Assembly (NCBI GenBank): GCA_030390025.1
Contig: CM059432.1
Coordinates: 70,062,001 to 70,126,000 of the forward strand
Length of the DNA: 64,000 nt
From: Squalus acanthias
Taxonomy: Eukaryota
Direction of reading: 5' to 3'
In this document: positions 11,291-64,000 of the stretch, in pieces
Numbering within the stretch: the stretch's first letter is position 1
Layout: every line of letters begins with the position of its first letter
Notes under the pieces: model-generated
Database searches by the model: none
Told to the model about the DNA's origin: nothing
Seen by the model: the letters and a program-made list of their open reading frames with translations, nothing else
Program-made: the position numbers and the translations under genes

Positions 11291-11959
11291 TCCAAATCTG
11301 CCAGTGTACCCAGAAATCACCATGGTCAAATGTGTGAAACATTTGAGTTTACTCCTAGTTATTCCTGCTCTCTCCAGCTGCACCCTGTTGCACTATCCAT
11401 CTGGGATTAAATCCTGTTACAGTTATAAAATTGCGTTCATTTGGAAACACTGAAATAACATGATATCAAACGTCTACACAATGGCCAAAATAACTTCAAT
11501 TTACCAGTAAGCAGCCTGTTGTGGAGAAAAGGTGCAGGAGTCAAAATCCAAATTTTTTAAAAGTTTGAAAAAAAAATTTCAAGACGGAGGAAAAAAGTAA
11601 CCACTAACAAAATTGCAGGAAAGCATATTTTTGAAATGTACACCTCTTGAGAACATAAGCTTGTTATCAGCAGCAAAAAACAATTGACAGGCGGTAATGA
11701 TTCTTTGATGCTTTTCAAGCAACTAACAAGGCACTTAACCAATATAAATGCTAGAAAGTTCACAATCCAGCTGTGGAGTGCGCAATTATATTAGGCAATA
11801 TCTTCCACGCTGCTAAAGAGCATTGGGAATCCAAACTCCAAGATTCCATCAAAGTCAACTTCAACTTGATGGATAACTATTATAGGCAACAGTAAGGGTG
11901 AAATTAAAAAACATAATTGACGCCCGCTGTTCTAAGTTCAGTGAACATAGTGAGGAGAC

Positions 11960-12889
11960 AGCCTCCAGCAGCCACAGTCCTCCCAGATGCAGCGATGGAC
12001 GGCAAACTGTGAGATGTTAGCTATGTCTCCTGCTGCAAACTGGAAGGATCCACTGGCGAAGAAATTGAGGGCCACGGTGACCTTGACTGCCACTGGGAGA
12101 GCTGTGGTCGCCCAGCTCTGAGGCTGCAGGTCTGGTTGCAGGAGGTGGCAGAGTTCTGTGACCACCTCCTTGGTGAAGCGGAGCCTCCTAATACACTGCT
12201 CCTCTCTAAAGTGGATATACAAGAAGTGCTCTCGGAAGACCCTAGGTGGGTAAGGCCTCCTGTTGAGAGCCCTCCTGGCCCTCCTCCTCCTCCCTCTGCG
12301 CGCATCTTCTCGTCTTCTTCGCTGCCTCCACTCCCCTCTCCCTAAGATACTTGAGCGCGATGGGAACTGCCAGTAGAGCCCCCATGACTGTGAGCAAGTG
12401 TTGTGAGCAGAAGCCTTTAAATAAGAATGAAGGCGTCCTCCACTTGCCCCAACACTCCCTGTTACCTTAGAACCTTGAAAGAAGTTAATAAAGCTGCTGG
12501 AGTTGCAAAACGTTGCACAGAGCCAGTCAAACTGAAGAAATATGTCAGGTGCAAGTTTTTGCTGATGATCCCTTTAAATACCGCTGCTGGAGCCTCCTTC
12601 CTTCTTCCCAATGCTTGCTCAGCTGGTCGCACTTAAGGCATGCCACTAAGTTGAGCGATGAAGTCAAAACTCGCAGAATTGGCGTCAAGTGAGCATTGCA
12701 CACTCACTGACATCACGATCTGCATCATCTACGTAATTTTTGGCGAGCGCTGACATCGGCAGCATTGCCGGCCATCCAAAATGGCGGCTGCTGTGGGACC
12801 CGCCGGCAGCGGACAGAAGTGCAGTGGCAGCCATTTTTTCACCGAATCTGGAGGTAACGGGTGGCACTAAACCGCTAAATTTCTAGGCC
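11960..12889 (-). mobile_element. 5' fragment of a second Harbinger family with transposase N-terminus
   Basis: ORF 11938-12222(-) EEQCIRRLRFTKEVVTELC...[20 protein letters not shown]; terminus GGCCTAGAAATT at 12889. Confidence 0.85.
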
Positions 12890-14007
12890 TATGCCTTTTC
12901 TAATCTGTCCCCATTAGCTCTTTCTGTGCTTCACTTCCAAGAAGGTACGGACTTAATTCAAGTTAAAAATACTATGGGGGGCGATAATCTGATGACGGAG
13001 GAGGCGGGTTTGGAGGCGGGAAAGGCGGGAAAATCAGAAACAATGAGGGCAGGTTCGGAACCCGCCTCCAACCCGCCTCTGCGGGATTTTGCCGGTGCCG
13101 GTTTTGGAGGTCGGGAAACGGTCCTACCTCTAGCTGGCCATGGCACTAGTTAACATCATTAAATGCTCGTTAAGGGCCTCTCTAAGCCTATTTTGAGAGG
13201 CCCTCGTGATTTTTTGAGCATTTCGGCGTGTCCACGACCCTCCTAAACCACGCCAGCTAAACCTGGCGGGTTGACTCGTGGGTGGTCTCCTCACAGCTGC
13301 AGGTTCAACAATACATAGTTTATTTCATCAAGGATTACTTGCAGGTGCCAGAACTTTGCTTTAAAAAGTCTTTGAGCACTTTTAGAAGGCCTTCCGAAGT
13401 CAGAGGTGCTGCAGCTTGAATCTATCAACTGTGGGACCTCCTTGGAAGACCCTCTCCCCGCTTGCAATGAGTGCTTCCCCAACGGAGGCATCTGCAAGCA
13501 GCATGGGAACCATTCGTTTTCTTTCTCCATGGACCTCAAGTGAGCAGAACCAGGCAGCTCAGGAGCAACAGCAGCAGGAGCCCCAACCTGCTGCTCAGCC
13601 ACCTGATGCTGCACAGGGCAGAAGGCGCCAGCGCATCGAGGCACCTCGCTGCAGGAGATACCCCCAACAGAGGGTTTACAGACAAAGGATGAGCTACCTC
13701 AACATGAGTGAGCAGCAGTGCCAAAGGAGGCTGAGACTTTCGCGAGAGGTTGTCCGAGAGATCTGCGGACTGTTGCAGCAAGACCTCATGCCCAGAGGAA
13801 CGGGTGAACACCCTTTACCAGTGGCTGTCAAAGTCACCACCGCACTCAACTTCTTTGCCTCAGGCTCCTTCCAGGAATCATCAGCAGACATCAGCGGCAT
13901 CTCCCAGTCGGCCGCCCACAGTTGCATCTCGCAGGTTACCGATGCCCTTTTTGCTAAGGCCCACAATTACATCCAGTTCACAAGGGATCAAGCAAGTATA
14001 ACCGCCT

Positions 14008-14150
14008 ACACAATAGCAAAATACTGCAGATGCTGGAAATCCGAAATAACAACAGAAAACGCTGGAAAAACTCAGCAGGCCAGGCAGCATCCATGGAGAG
14101 AGAAACAGAGTTAACGTTTCAGGTCGAAGACCTTTCGTCAGAACTGGAAA
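14008..14150 (-). mobile_element. Penelope-type terminal-repeat mini-insertion carrying a hammerhead ribozyme motif
   Basis: TSD AACCGCCT (14000-14007, 14151-14158); absent from the paralogous transposase at ~17730. Confidence 0.85.
14109..14145 (-). ncRNA. Minimal type I hammerhead ribozyme motif
   Basis: Minus strand AGTT-CTGACGA-A-AGGTC(TTC)GACCT-GAAA-CG-TT-AACT: core, stem I, stem II and palindromic stem III. Confidence 0.8.
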
Positions 14151-16709: not shown

Positions 16710-17197
16710 CATAGGGCTGGATTTTGCCAGGCCCGAGAAGGCAGGTTTGAAGGCGGGTCAGGTGGGAAAGTTGCCCAGAATGGCGTCGGGCTCCGATCCC
16801 GCCTCCAACCCGCCTCTGAGCAACTTTCCCGAATGTGGGCTTTCAGAGGCACTTAACAACCACTTAACTGCCTCTATAATGCCATTTTGAGAGGCCTTTC
16901 TGAGTTTAACACACTTCCCGTGTGCTGCACGTCTCCTTTGGAACACACCAGTTAATCCTGGCGGGCTCACAAGTGGATGGCTTACTAACAGCTGCAGCTC
17001 CACCATAAAAACGGCGTTTTTCACAATGATCATTTGTAGGTGGCAGAACTTTCTTTTCTCAGGTCTGGGAGAACTTTTTGCAGGCCTACTCATTTTGGAA
17101 GTTTTGATGCTGAGATCCATCTCCACTGTGACCTCCTGGGAAACCCCCCTCCCCACCTTGACTGAGCGCTTCCTCAACTGAGGTATGTACCTGCAGC

Positions 17198-18457
17198 ATG
17201 GGAACCATTTATTTCCTTTCCTCCTGGACCTCAGATTTGGATGAAGACCAGCTGCGGCAGCAGCAGAACCCGGAACAACAGCAGCACCAACAGCAGGAGC
17301 AACAACAGGAGCGCCAACCTGCTGCTCACCCACCTGAAGCTGCACAGGCCAGAAGGCGCCAGCGCAGGGAAGCACATCACCGCAGGAGATACCCACAAAA
17401 CAGGGTCTACAGACAGAGGATGAGCTACCTCAACATGACTGAGCAGCAGTGCCAAAGGAGGCTCAGACTTTCGCGAGAGGTAGTGGGCGACATCTGCGCA
17501 ATGCTGCAGCAAGACCTGGAGCCCAGAGGAGCGGGTGGACACCCCTTACCAGTGACCATCAAAGTCACCACCACACTCAACTTTTTTGCTTCAGGCTCAT
17601 TCCAGGGATCTACAGCAGACATCAGCGGCATCTCCCAGGCGGCTGCACACACTTGCATCACGCAGGTAACCGATGTCCTCTTTGCCAACGCGCACAATTA
17701 CATCAACTTCTCCAAGGATCAAGCAAGTGTAACCGCGCGTGCGGTTGGATTTGCTAATCTGGCAGGCTTTCCAAGGGTGCAGGGCGTCGTAGACGGCACA
17801 CATGTAGCCCTTAAGGCACCCCATCACAATCCAGGTATTTTTGTCAACCACAAGGGCTTCCACTCCCTCAACGTGCAGCTGGTGTGTAACCAGAAGAAGG
17901 AAATTTTGCATGTTTGCGCCAAGTACCCTGGCAGTTGCCATGACTCCTTCATCCTGCGCCAATCTAATGTGCCTCCGCTCTTCAGTCCGCCAGACCAACT
18001 TTGCGGATGGCTACTTGGGGACAAGGGCTATCCCCTGAAGACGTGGCTAATGATGCCATTGAGGAGGCCATCCAACGAAGCTGAGGAGCGCTACAACTCC
18101 AGCCACATTTCCACCAAATCCATTATTGAGCAAACCATCGGCTTGCTGAAGATGCGATTCAGATGCCTTGATAGATCAGGTGGAGCCCTGTAGTACTCAG
18201 CAGCCAGGGTCTCCAGAATCGCCGTGGTCTGCTGTGCACTTCACAACATGGCACAGCATCGTGGCTTGCAGCTGCCTGAGGGACAAGTGGCTCATCGCAT
18301 AGCCTCCTCAGATGAGGATGAGGAGGAGGAGGAGGAGGAGGAGGAGGAAAGCGACAACGAACAGCTTGCAGAGGTGCATCAACCAGCGACAGCAGCACGT
18401 GAGAACATTGCTGCCCGGGATGCAAGGGATGCACTGATCTTGGCCAGATTTGCTTAG
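17198..18457 (+). pseudogene. Harbinger DDE transposase, 419 codons with one internal TAG at 18191-18193
   Basis: [39 protein letters not shown] 18224-18457 is in frame; the paralogue has CAG at this codon (14611). Confidence 0.93.
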
Positions 18458-18715: not shown

Positions 18716-20691
18716 CTACTTGTGCTTTATCTTCCTCTGACGCATGCTCCTATGTGGAGCTTCCCCTGTGGCTTCAGCAGATGTGGAGGCCCCTTGCTCA
18801 CTTTCATGCTGCTCCTGCCTCGACACCTTTGGCAGGCATCCTCTGGGGTTGCGAGCCTGTGAGGGCTCGCCAACAGTCTGCTGCTCCTGCAGCTGTGCAG
18901 GGGCTGAGACGCCGATCTCAGTTGGGTGAGGACTCTGACCGAGGGCTCTGAGGTGGCATGGTCATGTGAGCGCTTGGAGAGGAGCCCCCACTTCCTTGTT
19001 GTCTGCCACTAACATCCCTCTCATGGGTCAGCCCCACTTCAGAGCTAGCAAGTGGTTTGACAGCACATTGCTGCTCTTCAGGGGGGCCATGAGGACCTGT
19101 TTCTGCACTGGCAGTCCTACTCCAGAGGACTTCCATGAAGCTCTGGTTTCTCTGCTCAATAGCTGACCATCGCTCCTCCAGAGATGTCAGTCTATTCTGA
19201 ACAATGACCATGTTTTCAAGACCCTGGCGACTTAGCTCCTCCATGGACGTAGCCATCCTCTCCTCTACCGTAGCCATCCTTACCACGGAGGTAGCCATCC
19301 TTTCCATGGAGGTTGCCATCCTTTCCGTGGTGATGCATTCATGCGCCAATGCCTCCACAAAGGCTCTGCTCATGTTCGCGATGGACCCCTCCATTCGCTC
19401 CACACTCGCAGCGACCCTGGAGACAAAACCTGCCAGAGACTCCTGCACCTGTTCCTGGAGTTCCAGCACCGCTCTCCTTCTGGATGGACTCGGAGGCACA
19501 GGGTCGACATGCAGCTGAGCCGAGCTGGCAGAGTCCTGCGCCCTCCAACGAGGACTCTCCACTGCTGTCCCTGTCTCCACCATCTGCTGATGCTCACTTG
19601 TGAGCTGTGATACACCAGGTGACAACACTACTCTATGTCCCGAGGGTCCCACCGAGGTGTGAGGGTCTGCGCTGCTGCTGGGTGCGCTTAATTCTGCTGA
19701 CGCTGCGCCCTCAGCGGTTGCAGCTTCCTCTGAGGAGTCTGGTGGCTCAGGCTGTTCCTCCTGGACAGTGGGGAGGGGGGCTGTCGATGGTCCTGTGGGG
19801 GAGTAAAGGAAAGAATTAGACATGTGAGATAAACGTTGCATGCACATTGCATTGTGCAGATGATCATAAGTCAATCTGTTAGAGCATTAGAATCAAGATC
19901 AGTCACTCATGCAATGTCAATGAGAGAGATGAAAAACTATTCTGTCACCAGCTTGCTCTGATGCGCCCGTCTGTCCGTCCCCCACTTGCGCATCCTCCTC
20001 CACTCCCACGATCTCCAGGGCCACCTCCTCTGCACTGGTGAGCTGGGCTATTGAGGGTGACCCTCCTCCTGTCTTCGCCCTTTCCCTCTTATTGTGGGCT
20101 CTCTTTTCCTGCAATAAGGGACACAAGTGGAGTTTGAGTGAGAATGAAGGAGTGAGTGTAGAGAATCCATAGCGTAGATGCTTAGAAGGACAGAAAGATG
20201 GAGTGAGGTCCCAAGACCAAGGGCCCTCCCTGTGTGTTATAAGTTGTTGTCATAGCATAACAGTGATGGGGAGTGTGAGGGCTGCATAGTCGAATAGTTA
20301 AGTGAATGTGTACATAGAGAGAGAGGGAATGGTTAAGGGCGCAGGGATGTAAGGGTCAAGTGGGATGTGGAGGAGGAGGTTGACAATGAAGAGTGCTGGT
20401 GATGAGAGGCGATGGGGAGCAGATTGAGGGTCATGGTGATGTCATACTCACTTTTCCTGTGCGGAGAAGGTCATGAAACCAATTTCTGCACTGCAGCCAG
20501 GTTCTGCTGCACATTGATATGGCTCTGACCTCCTGTCCCACTTGCAGCCACACAGCTTTGGTCTGCTGGGGAGGTTTTTTCCTCCCAGAAGAAGGAAACA
20601 GCACTTCCTTATGAGCTCTTGCGCCCTCCACCAGAGCTTGAAGGGAGTCCTCATCAAAGCGGGGTGCGCACTTGGGTCTTGAGCTTGCCAT
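18716..20691 (-). CDS. Harbinger Myb/SANT-like DNA-binding protein, 3 exons (20691-20452, 20108-19949, 19792-18918; probable frameshifted tail to 18716)
   Basis: Exon 1 APRFDEDSLQALV...W...RTWLQCRNWFHDL; GT-AG junctions with matching phases (0, 1); exon 2 RERAKTGGG; 424 aa to the TGA at 18918. Confidence 0.85.
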
Positions 20692-23171: not shown

Positions 23172-24120
23172 TCATAGAATCATAGAAGATAGGAGCAGGA
23201 GTAGGCCATTCGGCCCCTCGAGCCTGCTCCGCCATTCAATGAGATCATGGCTGATCATCCAAATTCAGTACCCTGTCCCTGCCTTCTCCCCATATCCCTT
23301 GATCCCTTTAGCCTTAAGAAATATATCTAACTCCTTCTTGAATATATTTAATGAGTTGGCCTCAACTGCCTTCTGTGGCAGAGAATTCCACAGGTTCACC
23401 ACTCTTTGGGTAAAGAAATTCCTCCTCATCTCTGTCCTAAATGGCTTACCCCTTATCCTTAGACTGTGACCCCTGGTTCTGGACTCCCCGGCCATCGGGA
23501 ACATCCTTCCTGCATCTAGTCTGTCTAGTCCTGTTAGAATTTTATAAGTTTCAATGAGATCCCCTCCAGCGAGTATAAGCCCAATCGACCCAATCTCTCC
23601 TCATACGTCATTCCTGCCATCCCAGGTATCAGTCTGGTGAATCTTCGCTGCACTCCCTCCATGGCAAGAACATCCTTCCTCAGATAAGGCGACCAAAACT
23701 GCACACAATACTCAAGATGTGGTCTCACCAAGGCTCTGTACAACTGCAGCAAGACATCCTTGTTCCTGTACTCGAACCCTCTCGCTACGAAGGCCAACAT
23801 ACCATTTGCCTTCTTAACCGCCTGCTGCACCTGCATGCTTACCTTCAGCGACTGGTGCACAAGGACACCCAGGTCTCGTTGCAATTCCCCTTCTCCCAAT
23901 CTATTCCTGTTCAGATAATAATCTGCCTTCCTGTTTTTGCCACCAAAGTGGATAACCTCGCATTTATCCACATTGTACTGCATTTGCCATGCATCTGCCC
24001 AATCACCCAACCTGTCCAAATCATACTGGAGTTTCTCGGCATCCTCTTCACAGCACACATGCCCACCTAGCTTTGTGTCGTCTGCAAACTTGGAGATATT
24101 ACATCTAGTTCCCTCGTCTA
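23172..24120 (-). mobile_element. 5'-truncated CR1 nested in CR1 ORF2
   Basis: ORFs 23534-24058(-), 23265-23504(-); tail (TCATAGAA)2; GATA duplicated at 23168 and 24121. Confidence 0.93.
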
Positions 24121-24983
24121 GATAGTCACAGTGTGAAAGGCTTAGAGGGTGCGGAATTCTTAAAGTGCATCTAGGAGAGCTTTTTGAGCCAGTATGTAGA
24201 AAGTCCTACAAGAGAGGGCGCAGTACTGGACCTAATTCTAGGGAATGTAGCCGGGCAAGTGGTAGAAGTGTCAGTAGGAGAGCATTTTGGTGACTGTGAC
24301 CATAATTCGGTGAGATTTAAGGTAGTCATGGAAAAGGACAAAGATGGACCGGAAATAAAGGTTCTAAATTGGGGGAAGGCCGATTTTAATATGATAAAGC
24401 AGGATCTGGCCAAAGTGGACTGGGATCAGCTACTTGTAGGAAAATCCACATCAGAGCAGTGGGAGTCATTCAGAAAGGAAATAGAGAGAGTACAGCGCCA
24501 ACATGTTCCCGTAAAGGTCAAGGGTGGGACCAGCAAGTCCAGGGAACCCTGGATGTCAAGGGATATATAAGAATGGATTCGGAAAAAAAGGGAGGCTTTT
24601 GGCAGATACAAAGGACTAAAAACAGTGGAAGTCCTTGAGGAGTATAGAAAGTGCAGGGGGGTACTTAAAAAAGAAATTAGGAGAGCGAAGAGGGGGCATG
24701 AAAAAACACTGGCGGACAAAATAAAGGAAAATCCCAAGGTGTTTTATAAGTATATTAAGAGCAAGAGGATAACCAGGGAAAGAGTAGGGCCCATTAGGGA
24801 CCAAAGTGGCAATCTGTGTGTAGAGCCAAAAGATGTAGGTGAGGTTTTAAATTAATATTTTGCATCTGTGTTCACTATGGAGAAGGGCGATGTAGGCATA
24901 GAAATCAGGCAGGGGATTGTGATATACTTGAACAAATTAGCATTGAGAGGGAGGAGGTACTAGCGGTTTTAGCGGGCTTAAAA

Positions 24984-26474
24984 GTGGATAAATCCCCAGG
25001 CCCAGACGAGAGGTATCCCAGGCTGCTGTGTGAGGCAAGAGAGGAGATTGCAGGGGCTCTGACACAAATTTTCAGAACCTCTCTGGCCACAGGGGAGGTG
25101 CCAGAGGACTGGAGGACAGCTAACGTTGTACCATTATTCAAGAAGGGTAGTAGGGATAAACCAGGGAATTACAGGCCAGTGAGCCTAACATCAGTGGTAG
25201 GGAAATTATTGGAAAAAATTCTGAGGGACAGAATTAGTCTCCACTTGGAGAGGCAAGGATTAATCAAGGATAGTCAGCATGGCTTTGTCAGGGGGAGATC
25301 ATGTCTAACCAATTTGATTGAATTTTTCGAGGGGGTGACTAGGTGTGTGGATGAGGGTAGTGCAGTTGATGTAGTCTACATGGACTTCAGTAAGGCTTTT
25401 GACAAAGTCCCGCATGGGAGACTGGTCAAGAAGGTAAGAGCCCATGGGATCCAGGGCAATTTGGTACATTGGATCCAAAATTGGCTTAGTGGCAGGAGGC
25501 AGAGGGTGATGGTCGAAGGTTGTTTTTGTGACTGGAAGCCTGTGTCCAGTGGTGTACCGCAGGGATCGGTGCTGGGCCCCTTCCTGTTTGTAGTATACAT
25601 TAATGATTTAGATATGAATGTAGGAGGTATGATCAGTAAGTTCGCAGATGACACGAAAATTGGTGGAATGGTAAATAGCGAGGAGGGAAGCCTCAGGCTA
25701 CAGGACGATATAGACGGGTTGGTCAGATGGGCAGAACAGTGGCAAATGGAATTTAACCCTGAAAAGTGTGAGGTGATGCATTTTGGGAGGACTAACAAGG
25801 CAAGGGAATACACAATGAATGGTAGGACCCTAGGAAGGACAGAGGATCAGAGGGACCTTGGTGTGCATGTACATAGATCCCTGAAGGCAGCAGGACAGGT
25901 AGATAAGGTGGTTAAGAAGGCATATGGGATACTTGCCTTCATTAGCCGAGGCATAGAATATAAGAGCAGGGAGGTTATGATGGAGCTGTACAAAACGCTA
26001 GTTAGGCCACAGCTGGAATACTGTGTGCAGTTCTGGTTGCCATACTATAGGAAGGATGTGATTGCATTGGAGAAGGTGCAGAGGAGATTCACCTGGATGT
26101 TACCTGGGCTGGAGCGTTTCAGCTATGAAGAGAGACTGGACAGGCTGGGGTTGTTTTCCTTAGAGCAGAGAAGGCTGAGGGAGGACCTGATTGAGGTGTA
26201 CAAAATTATGAGGGGCATAGATAGGGTAGATAGAAAGGAACTTTTCCCCTTAGTAGAGGGGTCAATAACCAGGGGGCATAGTTTCAAGGTAAGGGGCAGG
26301 AGGTTTAGAGGGGATTGGAGAAAAAACTTTTTCACCCAGAGAGTGGTTGGAATCTGGAACTCACTGCCTGAAAGGGTGGTAGTGGCAGGAACTCTCACAA
26401 CATTCAAGAAGCATTTAGATGAGCACTTGAAATGCCATAGCATACAAGGGTACGGACCAAGTGCTGGAAAATGA
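24984..26474 (+). pseudogene. CR1 ORF2 reverse transcriptase region, 496 aa open (upstream ORF2 disrupted)
   Basis: [35 protein letters not shown] motifs. Confidence 0.93.
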
Positions 26475-29696: not shown

Positions 29697-32100
29697 AACC
29701 CAATGCTGAGCCCGCCCAATATAGAATCCACCCAATGTAGAACCCGCCCAATGTAGAGCCCGCCCAATACAGAGCTGGCCCACTGCAGAATCCACCCAAT
29801 ACAGAATCCACCCAATACAGAATTCACCCAATACAGAATCCACCCAATACAGAATCCACCCAATACAGAATCCACCCAATACAGAATCGGCCCAATACAG
29901 AACCGGCCCAATACAGAACCGGCCCAATATAGAACCCGCCCAATACAGAACACACCCAATACAGAACCCGCCCAATACAGAACCCGCTCAATACAGAACC
30001 GGCCCAATGCAGAACTGGCCCAATACAGAACCCGCCCAATACAGAACACACCCAATACAGAACCCGCTCAATACAGAACCGGCCCAATGCAGAACTGGCC
30101 CAATACAGAACCCGCCCAATACAGAATACGCCCAATACAGAACCCGTCCAATACAGAACCGGCTCAATACAGAATCCGCTCAATACAGAACCCGCCCAAT
30201 ACAGAACCCGCTCAATACAGAACCCGCTCAATACAGAACCGGCTCAATACAGAACCCGCTCAATACAGAACCCGCCCAATACAGAACCCGCTCAATACAG
30301 AACCCGTCCAATACAGAACCCGCCCAATACAGAACCCGCTCAATACAGAACCCGCCCAATACAGAACCCGCCCAATACAGAACCCGCTCAATACAGAACC
30401 CGCCCAATACAGAACCCGCCCAATACAGAACCCGCTCAATACAGAACCCGCTCAATACAGAACCCGCCCAATACAGAACCCGCTCAATACAGAACCCGCC
30501 CAATACAGAACCCGCCCAATACAGAACCCGCCCAATACAGAACCCACCCAATACAGAACCCACCCAATACAGAACCCGCCCAATACAGAACCCGCTCAAT
30601 ACAGAACCCGCCCAATACAGAACCCGCCCAATACAGACCCCGCCCAATACAGAACCCGCCCAATGCAGAACCCGCCCAATACAGAACCCGCCCAATACAG
30701 AACCCGCCCAATATAGAACCCGCCCAATACAGAACCCGCCCAATACAGAACCCGCCCAATACAGACCTCGCCCAATACAGACCTCGCCCAATACAGAACC
30801 CGCCCAATACAGAACCCGCCCAATACAGACCTCGCCCAATACAGACCCTGCCCAATACAGACCCCGCCCAATACAGAACCCGCCCAATGCAGAACCCGCC
30901 CAATACAGAACCCGCCCAATACAGAACCCGCCCAATATAGAACCCGCCCAATACAGAACCCGCCCAATACAGAACCCGCCCAATACAGACCTCGCCCAAT
31001 ACAGACCTCGCCCAATACAGAACCCGCCCAATACAGAACCCGCCCAATACAGACCTCGCCCAATACAGAACCTGCCCAATACAGACCCTGCCCAATACAG
31101 ACCCCGCCCAATACAGAACCCACTCAATACTGAAGCCGCTCAATATAGAACCCGCCCAATACAGAACCCACTCAATATAGAACCCGCCCAATGCAGAACC
31201 CGCTCAATATAGAACCCGCTCAATACAGAACCCGCCCAATACAGAACCCGCTCAATACAGAACCCGCCCAATACAGAACCCGCCCAATACAGAACCCGCT
31301 CAATACAGAACCGGCCCAATACAGAACCGGCCCAATACAGAACCGGCCCAATACAGAACCCGCCCAATACAGAACCCGCCCAATACAGAACCGGCCCAAT
31401 ATAGAACCGGCCCAATGCAGAGCCCGTCCAATGCAGAACCCGCCCAATGCAGAACCCACCCAATATAGAACACACCCAATATAGAACCCGCTCAATACAG
31501 AGCTGGCCCAATGCAGAATCCACCCAATGCAGAGCCCACCCAATGCAGAATCCACCCAATGCAGAATCCACCCAATGCAGAGCCCACCCAATGCAGAATC
31601 CGCCCAATGCAGAATCCACCCAATGCAGAATCCGCCCAATGCAGAATCCACCCAATGCAGAGCCCACCCAATGCAGAACCCGCCCAATGCAGAACCCGCC
31701 CAATGCAGAACCCGCCCAATGCAGAACCCGCCCAATGCAGAACCCGCCCAATGCAGAGCCCGCCCAATGCAGAGCCCGCCAATGCAGTGCCCGCCCAATG
31801 CAGAATCCACCCAATGCAGAATCCACCCAATGCAGAATCCACCCACCGCAGAGCCCGCCCAATGCAGAGCCCACCCACCGCAGAGCCCACCCAATGCAGA
31901 GCCCGCCCAATGCAGAGCCCACCCACCGCAGAGCCCACCCAATGCAGAGCCCGCCCAATGCAGAGCCCACCCACCGCAGAGCCCACCCAATGCAGAGCCC
32001 GCCCAATGCAGAGCCCACCCACCGCAGAGCCCGCCCAATGCAGAGCCCACCCAATGCAGAATCCATCCAATGCAGAATCCACCCACCGCAGAGCCCGCCC
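29697..32100. repeat. 16-bp minisatellite, consensus AACCCGCCCAATACAG, about 150 units
   Basis: Directly visible tandem array with regional variants. Confidence 0.98.
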
Positions 32101-32192
32101 GATGAATTCTCCTCTTGGCTTCACAAAAATCGTTGCAGTAACTTATCTGCAGTGTCCCTTTAAGGGCAGTCTACGTACAGCTAGATGGAGAA

Positions 32193-32543
32193 TGGTAGCA
32201 TAGTGGTTATGTTGCTGGACTAATAATCTGGAGACGTGAGTTCAAATCCCACCACAGCAGCTGGGGAATTTAAATTCAGTTAATTAAATAAATCTGGAAT
32301 AAAAAGCTAGTATCGGTAATGGTGATCATGAAACTACTGGATTGTCATTAAAACCCATCTGGTTCACTAATGCCCTTTAGGGAAGGAAATCTGCCGTCCT
32401 TACCCGGTCTGGCTTATATGTGACTCCAGACCCACAGCAATGTGATTGATTCTTAACTGCCCTCTGAAATGGCCTAGCAAGCCATTTATTCAAGAAGACT
32501 GCTCACCATCATCTACTCGAGGACAATTAGGGATGGGCAATAA
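32193..32543 (+). mobile_element. tRNA-derived SINE (second family)
   Basis: A box TAGCATAGTGG, B box GTTCAAATCCC, LINE-like tail TAGGGATGGGCAATAA. Confidence 0.75.
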
Positions 32544-53993: not shown

Positions 53994-55403
53994 TGTATCT
54001 TTAGTCATCCAGGGAGCTTTAGCTTTGGATCCCCTTCCTTTTCCCCTCGTAGGAATGTGTCTACTCTGTACCCAAACTATCTCCACTTTGATTCATTGTT
54101 CATTTACTGTTTTGCCTATCAATTTTTGATTCCAGTCCACCTTGGCCTGTTCCCTTTTTTAACTCACTGAAATTAGCCCTCTTCCAGTTAATTATTTTTA
54201 CGATTGATTGTTCCTTGTCCTATTCCATAAGTATTCCAAACCAGATGATATTATGATCACTGTTCCCCAAATGCTCCCCGATTGTAACATGCTCCACCTG
54301 CCCTACTTCATTCCCCAGAGCTAGATGAAGCATTGCTTCCTTCCTTGTGGGCTGGAAACATTGTTGTTGATCTTTCCCACTGTGTGTTTTGTTCTCCTAT
54401 AACTTAGTGATTAATTGTTGTAAGATTTAAACAACACAATGTACGTGCACCCAATTCTTCAGATTCAAAGAAAGAGAATTGCCACTGTGTCATTTAACTC
54501 TTTCAAAAAGGAGCTGACTAACTATCTGGTTGGGAATAGGACTGGAGGTTATAGGGATAGGTATTGACTTGGACGATTAAATACTTCATGGGTCATAATG
54601 GTACCTTGTGCTGCTGGGACCAGGGAGAGGGGAAGGGAGATCTTGAATTGTCTTAGACACATTGATACTGATCTTGGTTGGCCTATCCAGTGCTTATTCT
54701 CTTCCTCCATCCAACCAGCCTAGGATTGGAAATTCATGCTGCACAATGATTAGATACAGCACATAGATGTATCAGCATGCTCTATCAGTTTCTTCACAGA
54801 TTCCCTTTTTAAAAAAATCATATATATGTGCCTTTAGCCCTTCAAAAAAACTTACACTACTAATGTTAAATGGTAAGGTTTCTGATCAATAGTGCACACT
54901 ATGGCAGAAGCCGACTGTGCTGAAACAGATGTTGATCTTTGTAAATCCCAAAGCCTTCTGTTAGTGCAGATGATAAGATCAGCCAGATAAATGTGCTGGT
55001 TATTAAAGGACTGCCAACAGAAGCTGATTGATGCGAACACTTCCAGCATGAAAATATGCCCCAGATGGATGTTCAGTCACTTGTCAATAGAATTTAGTCA
55101 TGGAAGTAAAGGCAGTCAATATCTGCTGTAATCGATAATGGGAAACAACAAAGCAACCAAGCTCTATTTCACAGGAAGTAGCAATTCACAAGACAAGTAT
55201 ATTCAATGATTGTTCTTTCCTATATGTGCTATACTTGGGTTTACCATCACTCAGTTAGTCTTTTAAATGACCAAATTACTTTGATTACTAGTATTGAATA
55301 GGGCTGCAAAGTGTCAAAAATAAATATCCTATACTAGTAGACAATTGAGAGGGACAAGGTTATGGAGGGTTATAAACACAAGGATGAGAATTTTAAATTT
55401 GAG

Positions 55404-56296
55404 GGGGTAAAAATTCAGTTGGTTGCGCCTCCCGTTAGCGCCTTAAGAGGGCGCTAATGGGGCGCAAAGCCGCTAACGCCCGGGTGCAGCGATGTTTGCG
55501 CCGCTCGGGAACTTAACTAGAGATTGTGCGGCGGCGCTAAACTTTACCGCTGCGACCACCTGCGCGCGCAGATTGTGACGTCATTCCATGGTGCAACGCC
55601 CTTGTGGCGCCCCGGAGCGGAAATTGAGTGGCGCCCCCTGCCTTACCGCCTGACGCTAGCAATGACCAGAAGACTGGAACGCTATCAATCGCTGTGGGGC
55701 TGGGGGGGGCGCTATTTAAAGGGGGCCTCTTCCTGTCTTTTATTGTTGGTGGCATTTTTGAACTACGCATTCTGAGAGAGAGAGGGAGAGACTTCTGGAG
55801 AGATTCAACGTTGTGTGAAGGAGTTTTGGGTACTGAGCAGCACTTTGGAGGTTCATTTTGATTTGCCATTCCTTGTATCGATTTAGCAGAGACTGTGGGA
55901 GCTGCACTCTGAGCTCTTTGCCTGGTACTCTCCATTGTTCTTTCCAGCACATTTGATGTGCAAGTCTCTCCAGGCCGAGATTCAAGGCTGCAATGAACAG
56001 GATGTGGATGGAAAGCAAGATTAACCATCCCCTTTAAGAACTGGCCCGTGCCATTGTGTGTGTGTTCCATTGCTGACTGACATTACATGAGCTTCGCCAG
56101 CGCTCTGAGTTAGCGCCTCACTCCTTGGCCTTTGCGCCTTAAGACAGGTGTGCAGTGCCTGATTTAGCGCTCCACTCACCTCCCGGGGCGGTAAAAGTGA
56201 AGTTTCCAGTCAGTGCCGATAATTAGCGCCAGGCGCTAATATTTGCGTCCAGACGATATTTGCGCCCCAAATGGGGCGCGACCTAATTTTTACCCC
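55404..56296 (-). mobile_element. Harbinger-like MITE family B
   Basis: TIRs GGGGTAAAAATT / AATTTTTACCCC, TSD GAG; inverted copy of 41790-42682. Confidence 0.92.
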
Positions 56297-56935: not shown

Positions 56936-58052
56936 TATACGCTCATGTTTGCACCCCTTGGACTTGAGTGAGCGAAGCAGCAATGGGCTCAGGTGCAGAG
57001 AAGCAACTAAAGTCTGTACGAAAATGGAGATAAACTACATAGGCATGGCAGTCATCATGTGAGTCATGTAATGATCGTAAACTGATGGAAGAGAGGATAT
57101 AATATGAAACAGTCCAAAATCTTACGGCCTGTGGTGGAATAGATTCCATTTGTAGGCACGGTAGAGTCACCTTGGGTAGCTACATACTAATGGGCTGTAT
57201 TTTGCGACCCCCACGGGTACGTACGAGGTGCGCACGCGCCCGTAGGGGCCGCGCAAGTTCCGGGTTTAGGCATGCGAAGCGCATGCGCTGAAACCCGGCA
57301 CTTGTGATCTGTCAAGAATCTCTTGACAGATCCTCCGTATCCCCGGGAGAAGTTCCTCTGCGGGTGGAGAGTTGCACTATTTGCCCAACTTCCGCCCGCT
57401 GAAAGGCCATGGAATTCTTACGCCTGGTAAAAGCAGGCGTAAAGGCCTGCTTTTACCAGCATAAGAGTTTTAAAAAATAGAAAAATAAAATGTTATCACT
57501 CATTTATACATTAAAAACCCTGTCCAATAAGGTAAGTTTATATTTAGCCCCGTTAAAACATATAGGGGGCTAAATTCGGTTGATTGGCGCCTCCCTAAGA
57601 GGGCGCTAACGTGGCATAAATCAACTAGTGCCTGGCTGCGGCGCCGCTAATGCATCCCACGAAATTCAGTGGGAGATTAGCAGCGGCGCTGCGCCGCCGG
57701 CGATGACGTCATCGCCGTGCGCAGCGCCCCGCTCGTGCCCCGGCTGTAATATTGGGTGATGCCCCCCGACTTACCACCGGACACTATGTCCGCCGGGGTC
57801 AAGGGGGCCTACCTGTGGCCGGGGTGGCGCTAGTTAAAGGGGAGGTGGCGGGCGGCCATTTTTGTTGCTGGCCGCCTGCCAGCACCTGCCCCCGTTGCTG
57901 TCCTCGGCCCCCGTGAAGCCCCCCCGCGGGGTACTGGCTGCTCTCCGTGAGCCCGGCACTCCTCTTGAGTGCCGGGCTCGTTTGCCGGCACTCCCGATCC
58001 CTGATGGCCCAGCTGGGCACCGGGATACGCTGTGCCAGGCCCCTCTCCTTTA

Positions 58053-58154
58053 GTAACTTTACCTGAAGAAGGGGCGATCGATAGCTCCGAAAGCTTGTAA
58101 TTTTAAATAAATCTGTTGGACTATAACCTGGTGTTGTGCGACTTCTCATTTTTG
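58053..58154 (+). mobile_element. Penelope-type terminal-repeat mini-insertion carrying a hammerhead ribozyme motif (second family)
   Basis: TSD TCCTTTA (58046-58052, 58155-58161); AT-rich insert within a GC-rich MITE; AATAAA at 58106. Confidence 0.85.
58059..58100 (+). ncRNA. Minimal type I hammerhead ribozyme motif
   Basis: TTAC-CTGAAGA-A-GGGGC(GATCGATA)GCTCC-GAAA-GC-TT-GTAA: core, stem I TTAC/GTAA, stem II, palindromic AAGCTT stem III. Confidence 0.82.
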
Positions 58155-61100
58155 TCCTTTAATAAGGGGAGGAAGGCCTGCAGTACCGCGGCACGTAGCG
58201 CCACAATATTGGCTTGCAGCGCTCCAAGAGGGACGCGGGGTGCTTCCAGTAGCGCCCCTCCTCCCTCTCGGGGCGCTACCTGGGAAAATCAGCCGCAGGG
58301 GCGCTAACTTTTTCGGGGCGCTAACCCGGTGAAGGGCGCTACCCAATTTTAACCCCATAATTTTTTTTTCAAAACATTAAATTTTTCTTTAAAATATTTA
58401 ATTAAATGCCATTTTAATTAATTTTATATATGTAATTTTTAAAATTTATTTCATGTGCTCGTGTATTTTTTACATCATCCCCATTCATACTTATGACAGT
58501 TCCCTACGTACGGAACTCCCATAAGTATGAATGGGGATTCCCTTCTTTCATTGGTTGGGCTGGCCCACGTGATCCCAGGAGTGCTTGCAAACCACATGCG
58601 CCCCTGGGACACGTGGGCCTCTACGCATTTCTACCAGGAGTGGCCCAGGATCGCAAGCCTCCGTATCTCCCGGACCACCAGGTAAATGCGTAGATTTTTT
58701 GATGATCGGAGGCTTCAGGCCCAATATCTAAATTTGAAGTCAGTGGCAGTGAAGGAGTGGATTCAGGAGTTCTTAGAGAGTAATATCTGAGACCTGGTGG
58801 ATGTTGTCCAATGGATTCAAAGAGCCAAGAAGGAGCGGAGAGCCGGCCATTAACCAACATAGGTTGATCCCAAGGTCCAGTCGAGGTGCATAGTGGCCTC
58901 AAGTGTTACCAGTGGGGAACCAGCGGATCTGCTGGATGAACAGAAGCATGTGCAGCAGTGGGAGTGAAATCCAGAAGCCAAGCGCCAAGGGTGCAGGGTG
59001 AAGGGTAAATCCTAGGGATCAGTTCAGATGATTAAGATCGTCCAAGGAGCAGTTGTAAGGCAGTGAGAAGCACACAAGATTGGTAGCAGCAGGAACTTGA
59101 GAATATTTTCAGAAAGTGTGATTAAGTGATTCACTCTATGCACAGACCAATTAAATACTTTTTGACAGTGGCATTCATTTCTATGTGAAATCCATTGTTC
59201 TTTATGGGATAAACAGTGGAAGCTTACTGCGCTACTTTTCACTGTAAGTGAGTAGTTATGTCATTCTAATGGGGTTTTTCATTCAGGTGCATGTTAAACA
59301 AATTGGGAAATTGGATGTGTTTTTTTCTTTAACTAAGCTGTCATTATAAGTAGGCCATGCTATAATTGATGTAAGTAAACAGAAACAATTTAAGTTTGTA
59401 TGTACATTTGCACTCAAGGATTGTGTTTCAGGCTGTTCCTCTTTGTTGTGTTTGCTGACCAACACATGCAGAATCATAGATTTTGAGGTACTGTAGTTAT
59501 TAAGAAACTGAAATAAAAATCAACATTAGTAAAAACTTTGGCTTTAAAGTCTTTTGAAATTATTCTTCGTCACTTTGGGGCTACAATACTTGGCATAAAA
59601 ATAAACTATTTTAGATTGAAGTACAGTTTATTCAATAAAGTTTATTAATAATGTCAAAAATACCATTTCATTTTTTTTTAAAGAAACAAAGAATATAGAG
59701 AGTTTTGGGGTTCTCACTGCCTGGTACTAATAATATCAGTTAAGTAATTGAGCGTGTCAGTTATTTTTTAACCGTGGCAAAATTGCCTATTTGCAGCAGC
59801 AGCAGAATACGGGATTCCTGTTTAGTGAGTGCTCGCATTCTCAGCAGCAAGGTGCATTTTAATTTGTCCGCTGTCCATGGTAGAGTCTAGTTTTGCCCAT
59901 TAACTAGCTTGGCACACTGAATGGAAAGTTCTATTCTTTTGCTACGCACCATCTCAGACATTGGTAGTTAACATGGCAAGGACTATGCCTATGCCACCTA
60001 GTTGGCAAATACAGAATTGCATTGGTTCTGATGGAATGCAACAGTGGAAAGCAATGAAGGTGGAGGGGTGCAAAACGCTTATGTGGAAAAGGGAGGTGGA
60101 ATTCTCCCCTACTCGAAAGAAAAAAAATAATTTCAGGATCAAGAAATAAACATTACGCCTAATAAGTCTGACCGCTTTTGATAGATTTCAGCCCATTCCG
60201 CATTCACTTTCTCTCCAAATACCTCAACTCCCCTTTCCAGGAGCACATCTTGATGTCTGTTCATCCAATTTCTATTATTCACTTCAATGGTTTTCTCTGG
60301 GAACTCATTATTTTGCATAAAAATAACTTCCCTTCTTTCTCCTGACTTGGTAATTTTTTTAACTTGTTCCCCATCCAGTTTTAAACCCTTCACCATAGTG
60401 GATAATTTGCCTGGCTTAATTTAGTCAATACTCATCATCCTGAAGAAGTCAACTCATGTGCAAATTGTGTGTTTATCGTAATTCAATTTGCAATATTAGA
60501 ACTATATCAATTTAATATAAATGTATGGTGTGGTAGAAAAAGAAGTTATTTTTTTGAAATTGTAAAAGAAATATATATATCAGGTTTGATGCACGCTGCC
60601 AATAATAGAGTATTGTGAGGACCATCTTGGTACCTTTGTTTGCAGTTAGCTACTTAAAATATGGCCTAGAATTTTAGAAATTGCAGCGCAGAAGAAGGCA
60701 TTTAACTCATTGTGCCAGCGCCCTGATTCTGATACAATATTAATATTGTAATGCTTTTATTATGCTGTTAGTTATTAGTGTATAGTATTATAGTAGAGTA
60801 AATTTTACAAGTTCGAACTCCCAACAAGGAATCTCACTCTATGAGAGGGAAGATAGATCATCGGAGTTTAGCCTCCCAATTCACAGCCCTCCCTTTTGTT
60901 TGGTTATTAATTTTAATACTCGAAAATCGGCAGCCGCACAAATTGAGCGCACTGATCGTTGGCCCAATTGTCCAGTCTGCCGTCCTGTTAAGCAAAGCTC
61001 GCACTAGGAGTGCTAATTGGAAAAATTTGTCCCAGTATATTTCAGTGTAACCAATGCTACACATTGGCTCTGTGAACATTTTTTTTATTTGCCTTGCAGA

Positions 61101-61653: not shown

Positions 61654-64000
61654 CATAGAATCATAGAATCATAGAAATTTACAGCACGGAAGGAGGCCCT
61701 GTCAGCCCATCGTGTCCGCGTTGGCCGACAAAGAGCTATCCAGCCTAATCCCACTTTCCAGCTCTTGGTCCGTAGCCCTGTAGGTTACGGCACTTCAAGT
61801 GCACATCCAAGCACTTTTTAAATGTGGTTAGGGTTTCTGCCTCTACCACCCTTTCAGGCAGTGAGTTCCAGACCCCCACCACCCTCTGGGTGAAGAAATG
61901 TCCCCTCACATTCCCTCTAAACCTCCTACCAATTACTTTAAATCTATGCCCCCTGGTTGTTGACGCCTCTGCTAAGGGAAATAGGTTCTTCCTATCCACT
62001 CTATCTAGGCCCCTCATAATTTTATACACTTCAATAAGGTCTCCCCTCAGCCTCTTCTATTCCAAAGAAAACAAACCCAGCCTATCCAATCTTTCCTCGT
62101 AGCTAAAATTCTCCAGTCCAGGCAACATCCTCGTAAATCTCCTCTGCACCCTCTCTAGCGCAATCACATCATTCTGTAATGTGGTGACTAGAACTGCACG
62201 CAGTACTCTAGCTGTGGTCTAACTAGTGTTTTATACAGTTCAAGCATAACCTTCCTGCTCTTGTATTCTATGCCTCGGCTAATAAAGGCAAGTATTCCGT
62301 ATGCCTTCTTAACCACCTTATCTACTTGGCCTGCTACCTTCAGGGATCTGTGGACCTGCACTCCAAGGTCCCTTTGTTCCTCTACACTTCTCAGTGTCCT
62401 ACCATTTAATGTGTATTCCCTTGCCTTGTTAGGCCTCCCCAAATTCATTACCTCACACTTCTCCAGATTGAATTCCATTTGCCACTGTTCTGCCCACCTG
62501 ACCAGTCCATTGATATTTTCCTGCAGTCTGCAGCTTTCTTCTTCATTATCCACCGCATGGCCAATTTTTGTATCATCTGCAAACTTCTTAATCATACCCC
62601 CTGCATTCATGTCTAAATCATTGATATATACCGCAAAAAGCAAGGGACCTCGTACTGAGCCCTGCGGAACCTCACTGGAAACAGCCTTCCAGTCACAAAA
62701 ACACCCATCAACCATTACACTTTGCTTCCTGCCTCTGAGCCAATTTTGGATCCAACTTGCCACTTTGCCCTGGATCCCATGGGCTTTCACTTTTGTGACT
62801 AGTCTGCCATGTGGGACTTTATCAAAAGCCTTGCTAAAATCCATATACGCTACATCAAACGCACTACCCTCATCGACCCTCCTTGTTACCTCCTCAAAAA
62901 ATTTAATCAAGTTAGTCAGACACGACCTTCCCTTAACAAATCCATGCTGACTGTCCTTGATTAATCCGTGTCTTTCTAAATGAGGATTTATCCTGTCCCT
63001 CAGAACTTTTTCCAATAATTTTCCCACCACCGAGGTTAGGCTGACTGGCCTGTAATGACTTGATCTATCCCTTTCTCCCTTTTTAAACAAAGGTACAACA
63101 TTAGCAGTCCTTCAGTCCTCTGGCACCACACCTGCAGCCAGAGAGGATTGGAAAATGATGGTCAGAGCCTCTGCTATTTCCTCTCTTACTTCTCTGAACA
63201 GTCTGGGATACATTTCATCCGGGCCTGTGGATTTATCCACTTTCAAAGCTGCTATGCCCTTAATACTTCCTCTCTCACTATGTTTATTTCATCTAATATT
63301 TCACACCCCTCCTCCCTGATTGCAATGTCTGCATCACCCCTCTCTTTTGTGAAAACAGATGCAAAGTATTAATTAAGAACCACCTCCACACACAGATTAC
63401 CTTTATGGTCTCTAATAGGCCCTACTCTTTCTTTAGTTATCCTCTTGCTCTTAATGTATTTATCAAACATCTTTGGGTTTTCCTTGATTTTACTTGCCAA
63501 AATGTTTTCATGCTCTCTCTTTGCTTTCCTAATTTCCTTTTTAATTGCACCCCTGCACTTTCTATACTCCTCTAGAGTTTCTGCAGTATTGAGCCCTCGG
63601 TACCTGTCATAAGCCTCCCTTTTTTTTCTTTATCCTACCCTGTATGTCCCTTGACATCCAGAGGGCTCTAGATTTGTTAGTCCCACCCTTTTTCTTTAAG
63701 GGAACATACTTGCTCTGAACCCTCAGGATCTCCTCCTTGAATGTCTCCCACTGCTCTGACACCGATTTACCTTCAAGTAGCTGTTTCCAGCCCACTTTGG
63801 CTAAATCCCATCTCAGCTTAGCAAAATTGACTTTTCCCCAATTGAGAACTTTTATTCCTGGTCTATCTCTGTCCTTTTCCATAACTACCCTAAATCTAAC
63901 TGAATTATGATCACTAGCACCAAAATGCTCTCCCACTGATACCCCTTCCGCCCGCCCAGCTTCATTCCCTAAAACTAAGTCCAGAACCGTCCCCTCCCTT
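61654..64000 (-). mobile_element. CR1 LINE ORF2 and 3' tail (continues past window end)
   Basis: ORFs 62188-63090(-) RT, 61745-62029(-), 63607-63936(-); tail (CATAGAAT)n. Confidence 0.95.

Follow-up and report, generated by a model that had tools for sequence, protein, structure and literature searches.

What is the short, ribozyme-bearing piece of DNA that interrupts a hairpin of a nested repeat in the shark Squalus acanthias, and how did it arrive there? The question was raised by a preliminary description of a 64,000-nucleotide (nt) stretch (assembly GCA_030390025.1, contig CM059432.1, positions 70,062,001 to 70,126,000 of the forward strand), hereafter called the window, which proposed that a 102-bp hammerhead mini-retroelement had been inserted into a doubly nested miniature inverted-repeat transposable element (MITE). 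Judged by its sequence, the insert is the ribozyme-bearing pseudo-long terminal repeat (pLTR) end of an abundant Neptune-type Penelope-like element (PLE) with approximately 100,000 copies in the genome. It is very probably a young, 5′-truncated and tail-less copy of this pLTR, which likely arose via target-primed reverse transcription of the element's RNA. The features of the locus are as follows, in window coordinates.

57192–58722: outer MITE-like element, with an AAT duplication at 57189-91 and 58723-25 and short GGGC/GCCC ends
57565–58356: inner MITE, host of the insert, with imperfect terminal inverted repeats and a 3-bp ATA duplication
58038–58050, plus strand: left arm of the MITE hairpin, the hot-spot target; fold of the empty site as DNA, -10.7 kcal/mol
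58046–58052, plus strand: left TCCTTTA copy, probably trimmed from a 12-nt stagger
58053–58154, plus strand: 5′-truncated, tail-less pLTR piece of a putative Neptune-type PLE, with 310 exact genomic matches; parent, locus L166
58059–58100, plus strand: minimal type I hammerhead motif, predicted to cut after 58096; core intact in 141/150 copies
58106–58111, plus strand: AATAAA followed by a GU/U-rich stretch, likely the parent's poly(A) signal, a function that we assume from the familiar consensus
58155–58161, plus strand: right TCCTTTA copy, the first 3 nt of which also match the element's continuation
58164–58178, plus strand: right arm of the MITE hairpin; a 19-mer covering it has 2,684 exact copies

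The 102 nt at 58053-58154 lie between copies of TCCTTTA at 58046-58052 and 58155-58161, as first described, and this is a true insertion, since the empty target site exists in the genome (61 exact matches, 2,172 at no more than one mismatch) and the filled left junction is unique (a single genomic match at up to two mismatches). Duplication and element overlap, by 3 nt at the 3′ end of the element and by 1-2 nt at its 5′ end, and the element therefore spans 58051-58157 at most. These 107 nt are identical, at 107/107 positions, to other copies of the element (L037/L038, L227, L238), while copies of the host MITE are only ~70-90% alike, which argues that the insertion is young. The doubly nested host was also correctly recognized: it is delimited by the ATA and AAT duplications, and the outer element has an empty form of its own (16 exact matches, 106 at no more than one mismatch), its two halves being contiguous in 12/12 loci fetched. 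All 30 of the 30 empty-site loci aligned to the inner MITE, with ~70-90% identity in the longer alignments. Both hosts have 3-bp duplications and empty sites, their inverted repeats are imperfect, and no partner transposase was matched to them; we take PIF/Harbinger MITEs to be marked by a 3-bp TWA-like duplication, terminal inverted repeats, no open reading frame (ORF) and many copies. An amplified composite of MITE plus insert was ruled out, as the junction is unique and the other 16 insertions at this site differ in subfamily, length and orientation. The outer MITE has internal hairpins at 58477-58538 (31-nt arms, 90%) and 57424-57459 (15-nt arms, 100%), the former of which was found again in other outer-MITE copies.

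Exact matches in the 3.7-Gb genome number 97,107 for a 26-mer taken from the insert, 0 for the control and 10,627 for a 27-mer of its subfamily; the subfamily copies examined below are the first 100 of these 10,627 listed places. At one locus (L312) the exact 102-mer is continuous with 1,500 nt or more of the element body, and L166 has a tandem pLTR-ORF-pLTR structure, with an ORF of 893 codons that begins at the last bases of the tail. This ORF matches RVT_1 (E 1.8e-9) and contains a DKG motif, a C-x4-C-xx-C linker and a GIY-YIG-like core, VYLI..WYIG, with two internal cysteines, which was identified by eye. Its best-scoring protein matches include shark proteins at 79-93% identity, and many of its relatives carry PF01541; a solved-structure search with its reverse transcriptase (RT) part gave 0 matches. 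Copies of the family show 5′ truncation, inverted partners and an optional tail. The parent thus fits a Neptune/Nematis-type PLE, an assignment by motifs with no tree, and the link to Penelope made in the preliminary description is supported by the pLTR identity and the RT-encoding ORF. The start codon of this ORF (L166:4508-4510) coincides with the end of the tail, and therefore one reverse-transcription start site would lie at the translation start. A shark protein named as an epn2 isoform (P0015) aligns to the PLE protein across 35% of the query at 93%, and is either an exonised PLE piece or an annotation error. Contigs of two other organisms (runs X6 and X8) also pile up on 58112-58135, so that the pLTR family is likely common to relatives.

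The 3′ ends of the copies fall into two classes: 48 of the 100 subfamily copies have no tail, 49 have the tail and 3 end in between, and genome-wide 33,595 of 73,776 ends of one type have it. The copy in the window belongs to the no-tail class and overlaps its duplication by 3 nt. Many copies are joined to an inverted partner, and the fetched loci contained 108 such pairs, 100 of them with a duplication of at least 9 nt. In 99 of these 100 pairs one end carried the tail and the other did not, the remaining pair having two no-tail ends; the 8 pairs without a duplication were split 6 and 2. Duplication length had its mode at 12 nt (41/100 pairs) and was 11-14 nt in 93/100. Microhomology at the junctions averaged 2.0 nt for no-tail ends, compared with 0.86 nt by chance, and 1.7 nt for tail ends, compared with 0.73 (25 of 27 pairs, two with negative overlap being left out). 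The 7-nt duplication in the window probably began as a 12-nt overhang that lost bases at the 5′ junction; with a cut in the register used most often at this MITE site, the true duplication would be 5 nt. In a separate case (L060), a PLE copy ends at neither of the usual 3′ sites but just past its AATAAA, where it is joined to sequence that matches window positions 55729-55830.

The 5′ ends are more variable, lying from 1 to more than 700 nt upstream of the anchor in the 100 subfamily copies, with 22/100 starting 36-59 nt upstream of it, at ~3x the neighbouring density. Promoter-like motifs were recognized by the TATA and initiator consensus sequences and their 30-nt spacing. In the window subfamily the 5′ ends peak at -11/-12 from the hammerhead core, where the window copy itself starts, with a TATA-like box at -43 and an initiator-like A at -13; in a second subfamily the peak is at -7/-6, the TATA-like box at -38/-39 and the initiator-like A at -7. 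The shift of the peak between the subfamilies is significant (39:16 vs 20:46, Fisher p 1e-5) in hand tallies of the first 100 of 448 and of 1,200 matches, which were not blind, as the shift was expected and a few such copies had already been seen; a scripted check on 30 loci per subfamily showed a shift in the same direction. Because the pile-up moves with the TATA box, these data suggest that the reverse transcriptase ran off the start of the transcript, ~30 bases downstream of the box. PLE promoters within the pLTR are described in PMC2377424 and PMC3846280. The window copy begins just past the predicted start site, and it is likely to have been dead on arrival, because it has neither TATA box, initiator, tail nor ORF.

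The pile-up might also stem from stalling of the reverse transcriptase, or from strand joining, just past hammerhead stem I, the origin of the insert being otherwise the same. The peaks lie within 15 nt of stem I in both subfamilies, and many junctions are fold-back palindromes with local microhomology. Stem I, however, occupies the same place in both subfamilies, while the peak moves by ~5 nt with the TATA box and initiator, and we therefore regard this explanation as doubtful, although it retains some weight.

Is the position of the insert, at the centre of a hairpin, a coincidence? Aligning the 41 pairs with exact 12-nt duplications revealed a symmetric target, roughly CTGNC^T-N10-A^GNCAG, in which position -1 was C in 32 pairs, -4 was T in 25, +13 was G in 25, +15 was C in 27 and +16 was A in 29. 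The core of the target is AT-rich (72% AT vs 55% in the flanks, 27 pairs). With a matrix built from 99 non-MITE sites, the window site scored a likelihood ratio of 411, compared with 106 for the 99.9th percentile of the background. The hairpin is also a recurrent insertion site, which fits the attention that the preliminary description gave to it. When junctions were searched, 10 no-tail ends, among them the window copy, proved to be joined to the right arm of the hairpin, which ruled out a single chance insertion into a MITE, and 7 further insertions in the opposite orientation were present among 12 matches. These at least 17 independent insertions, in both orientations, differ in subfamily and length, and 17 is a minimum because one end type and one sequence variant were searched. 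Given 2,684 right-arm copies and ~40,000 no-tail ends, uniform insertion predicts 0.12-0.20 events compared with the 10 seen, so that hairpin insertions occur at ~50-90 times chance. At a control site ~210 bp away in the same MITE, which shares TTAAAGGGGAGG and was searched in one orientation, there were insertions in 0/2,687 copies vs 10/2,684 at the hairpin (Fisher p 0.001). The matrix, scored at the hairpin as the mean of four empty sites, predicts 2.9 insertions there and 0.3 at the control, and sequence preference therefore explains most of the hot spot, with a ~3-fold excess remaining.

This excess, together with the 17 independent insertions in both orientations and the empty control site, would suit a model in which the element has the same origin and the MITE hairpin is extruded into a cruciform, the favoured substrate of the GIY-YIG nuclease. 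The 99 other targets, however, showed no dyad symmetry beyond the matrix (p 0.30) and no excess of hairpins: general hairpin targeting was ruled out on these sites, 4/99 of which, vs 6/198, folded at -6 kcal/mol or below. The matrix alone also predicts a ~10-fold difference between hairpin and control, and the duplications at the hairpin, where resolved, have the usual 11-13 nt rather than the arm-to-arm length that cutting at the base of a cruciform would presumably give. We consider cruciform targeting improbable. Elsewhere, the non-MITE sites to which five PLE ends (L342, L344, L345, L347, L351) are joined also read TAAAGGGGAGG, several of them with a pyrimidine run on the left, and among the 99 sites one other target 10-mer is present 3 times and another 2 times; further hot spots in other repeats are likely.

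The hammerhead motif is made up of UUAC (58059-62), CUGAAGA (58063-69), an unpaired A (58070), stem II (58071-75/58084-88), GAAA (58089-92), the palindrome AGCU (58092-95), the predicted cut after 58096 and GUAA (58097-100). It lies six nt inside the insert, where a full hammerhead had been announced, and its place is right; it is, however, a minimal motif with no helix III. The Rfam search that had been recommended was run and matched no hammerhead model at E<=10 in 2,201 or 121 bases, with no match at gathering score in the window. Stems I and II are present in the predicted fold of the insert; the fold is no better than those of shuffled sequences (z 0.31 and -0.75), and the loose core pattern is present in 37/100 shuffles of the window. 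With Rfam blank, the fold shuffle-like and the loose core common by chance, support for the hammerhead comes from the copies and not from the window sequence alone. Of 171 copies examined, 21 gave no parse, and in 141 of the 150 used the core is intact, in keeping with the minimal type I hammerhead with palindromic stem III of the preliminary description. Position 7 varies freely, 15.2/16.2 is GC in 150/150 and position 17 is U in 130/150. In stems I and II 96% of cells are paired, with one compensatory pair in stem I (UA 99, CG 43, UG 5 of 150), likely a single event, while the outer stem I pair is broken in 51/150 and stem II shows one-sided changes only, with no double change in the 150 copies. 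The predicted lowest-energy dimer (-30.5) differs from the active form (-18.7 kcal/mol).

Does the ribozyme leave a trace in the insertions? A pattern search found 3,085 copies that end near the predicted cut. In a hand tally from which 3 of 100 rows were dropped for indels, the first base after the cut was the exact start of 13/97 copies, compared with 3.7 in simulations with random flanks; some three of these 13 can be accounted for in other ways, and 11 copies start at another position, -5. The tally hints, weakly, that the hammerhead may cleave a small share of templates, below 1%. The template of the window copy was not cut, because sequence upstream of the cut is kept.

The preliminary description had inferred a discrete solo unit or retrozyme moved in trans, and had held that heterogeneous ends would instead indicate an ordinary truncated Penelope fragment. 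The 5′ ends are indeed heterogeneous, with no single position accounting for more than 14/100 or 18/100 short copies (hand tallies, two subfamilies); at the same time the ends are not placed at random, two 3′ sites being preferred. The combination of these 3′ sites with the broad 5′ pile-up explains why ~100-nt stubs recur: solo tail-less stubs of 98-104 nt with duplications make up 3/100 copies. Among the first 30 of the 310 places with the exact 102 nt, 0/30 stand alone with both ends of the window copy; 23 continue into upstream element sequence and 7 begin near the same point but are paired, on inspection by eye, with an inverted copy; the tail is present in 24 (22 scripted, 2 with small indels by eye). 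No short-period tandem array was found among the 100 subfamily matches listed, and no second hammerhead copy was found within the window, where the motif is single. The fixed-end test for a unit resembling a short interspersed element (SINE) failed among the copies examined, and as the tandem test failed as well, the insert is not retrozyme- or SINE-like.

It is accordingly very improbable that a ~100-nt piece of this kind forms a non-autonomous unit of its own, which is transcribed, undergoes processing through its hammerhead and depends on the PLE protein for movement in trans. Solo tail-less copies of 90-110 nt with duplications of their own do recur, in 3/100 unbiased copies and several others; PLE pLTRs are the source of animal retrozymes, monomer forms of which exist (bioRxiv 10.64898/2026.07.22.740005), and pLTRs are able to mobilise other sequence in trans (PMC3846280). 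Against this, at least 15 different 5′ end positions occur, longer copies have a pLTR of identical sequence, the predicted promoter is missing from the piece, and the retention of sequence upstream of the cut means that the piece is no cut-to-cut monomer. A solo pLTR left by recombination or deletion of a longer insertion, the origin ascribed in rotifers to solo pLTRs without duplications (PMC3846280), is barely credible here, where the sequence does not differ from that of current copies, a duplication flanks the insert and both its ends coincide with the family's preferred insertion ends.

We thus favour a young 5′-truncated pLTR copy made by target-primed reverse transcription. From the pLTR identity, the two 3′ end classes, the ~12-bp duplications, the symmetric target and the repeated use of the MITE site, the following course may be pictured. 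A dimer of the RT/GIY-YIG protein would cut both strands 12 nt apart at a CTGNC^T-N10-A^GNCAG-like site, leaving two 3′ overhangs, each of which could prime cDNA synthesis, one at the no-tail start and the other at the tail start ~35 nt on, aided by ~2 nt of pairing. In the window, the no-tail cDNA alone would have survived; it probably began on the 5′ pLTR of the transcript and ran off the RNA 5′ end after ~100 nt, and the other overhang would have been trimmed and joined via TA microhomology, giving the 7-bp duplication. The ribozyme would be a passenger on a template uncut at the hammerhead. The fuller proposal, which combines a dimeric enzyme, a pseudo-palindromic site, a fixed 12-nt stagger, one overhang per start site, cap-site run-off leaving ~100- and 135-nt stubs, few templates cut by the hammerhead and a MITE hairpin favoured beyond its sequence score, is tentative and falls a little short of being probable as a whole.

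Several observations weigh against this interpretation. The one near-full ORF that was read, at L166, carries an in-frame stop, and a Pfam search gave no endonuclease match on it. The 5′ tallies, being made by hand on the samples given above, count paired arms twice, and 22/30 and 17/30 of the short copies have an inverted partner, so that part of the pile-up may reflect the joining of arms. The TATA box and initiator are short motifs and the start site is a prediction, and pausing after hammerhead stem I could also yield the pile-up. At the hairpin, the matrix predicts ~3 insertions compared with 10 seen (p 0.001), and the register used most often there is another than the one that the matrix scores highest. 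Finally, the small microhomology excess contrasts with the homology-free priming in PMC11167929.

A literature search by titles and abstract openings, with supplements outside it, found no paper on a PLE target consensus or on start-site run-off, and the hairpin hot spot with its symmetric target, the 5′ pile-up that tracks the TATA box and the near-strict rule of one tail and one no-tail end in inverted insertions were not found in print. No account of this shark family was found either in a search that had Repbase, supplements and most subscription papers outside its reach, and the family may already carry a name in Repbase or in supplements.

The window contains other mobile elements. A Harbinger-type transposase frame at 17162-18193 (plus strand; DDE_Tnp_4, E 2.3e-29) faces a 322-codon frame at 18918-19886 (minus strand), and similar decayed frames lie at 13386-14114 and 11938-12573; these are possible partners of the MITEs with 3-bp duplications. 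RT frames of the long interspersed element (LINE) type, at 24843-26474 (plus), 62188-63111 (minus) and 23534-24205 (minus), the first matching RVT_1 at E 1.7e-35, are presumably CR1-like. A long minisatellite at 29725-32203 has a strong strand skew and many spurious open frames, and a second MITE-like element at ~55400-56280 has motifs in common with the inner MITE.

Taken alone, the insert is no more than an ordinary by-product of an element class already known, and its value is as an entry to the PLE transposition cycle, the later steps of which still await validation according to PMC11167929. If the proposed course is correct, tens of thousands of junctions record the mechanism of Penelope transposition, the run-off stubs on a monomeric mRNA resemble retroviral strong-stop DNA, and cut templates would be genomic evidence of a minimal hammerhead working in vivo. 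The target consensus, the 12-nt stagger, the one-tail rule and the predicted start sites are sharp predictions for an existing in vitro assay, for which the MITE hairpin offers a natural high-scoring substrate with a matched control ~210 bp away.

Four known systems come closest to the shark element. In purified form, the PLE protein of Anolis cleaves both strands and extends them; it is a predicted dimer and has two starts bracketing the tail (PMC11167929). The element concerned, Poseidon PAc of Anolis carolinensis, resembles the shark element in its two start sites bracketing the tail, its AT-rich targets and the dispensability of cleavage, there being no RNA ends at the hammerhead cut in the available text and no need of cleavage for insertion. 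It differs in that its ORF starts inside the hammerhead and that of the shark element at the tail end, while the shark junctions show ~2 nt of microhomology and a small excess of 5′ ends at the predicted cut. Endonuclease-positive (EN+) Neptune/Nematis PLEs (PMC8557442) share with it an ORF with RT and C-terminal GIY-YIG, a CX2-5CxxC linker, pLTRs containing a hammerhead, heavy 5′ truncation, an inverted 5′ copy and a 30-40-bp tail that is often at one end only. Compared with these, the shark element has a very high copy number, and the one-tail rule (99/100), the 12-bp stagger and the symmetric target are measured for it.

Metazoan minimal hammerheads (PMC4209133) likewise have a short helix I, an unpaired base before stem II, no helix III, a G10.1-C11.1 pair and a palindromic 15.2-16.2; the shark motif differs in its 5-bp stem II and in the U at position 17 noted above. 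Most minimal hammerheads are single motifs from truncated PLEs, and sharks are not mentioned in the main text of that paper as far as consulted. Retrozymes and SINE-like units are defined in PMC7229834, bioRxiv 10.64898/2026.07.22.740005 and PMC6155905. Animal non-LTR retrozymes (PMC7229834; bioRxiv 10.64898/2026.07.22.740005) also have a type I hammerhead, no ORF and an origin in pLTRs, but they are tandem repeats with a hammerhead per unit that give rise to circular RNAs, whereas the shark insert is single, with one minimal motif and variable ends.

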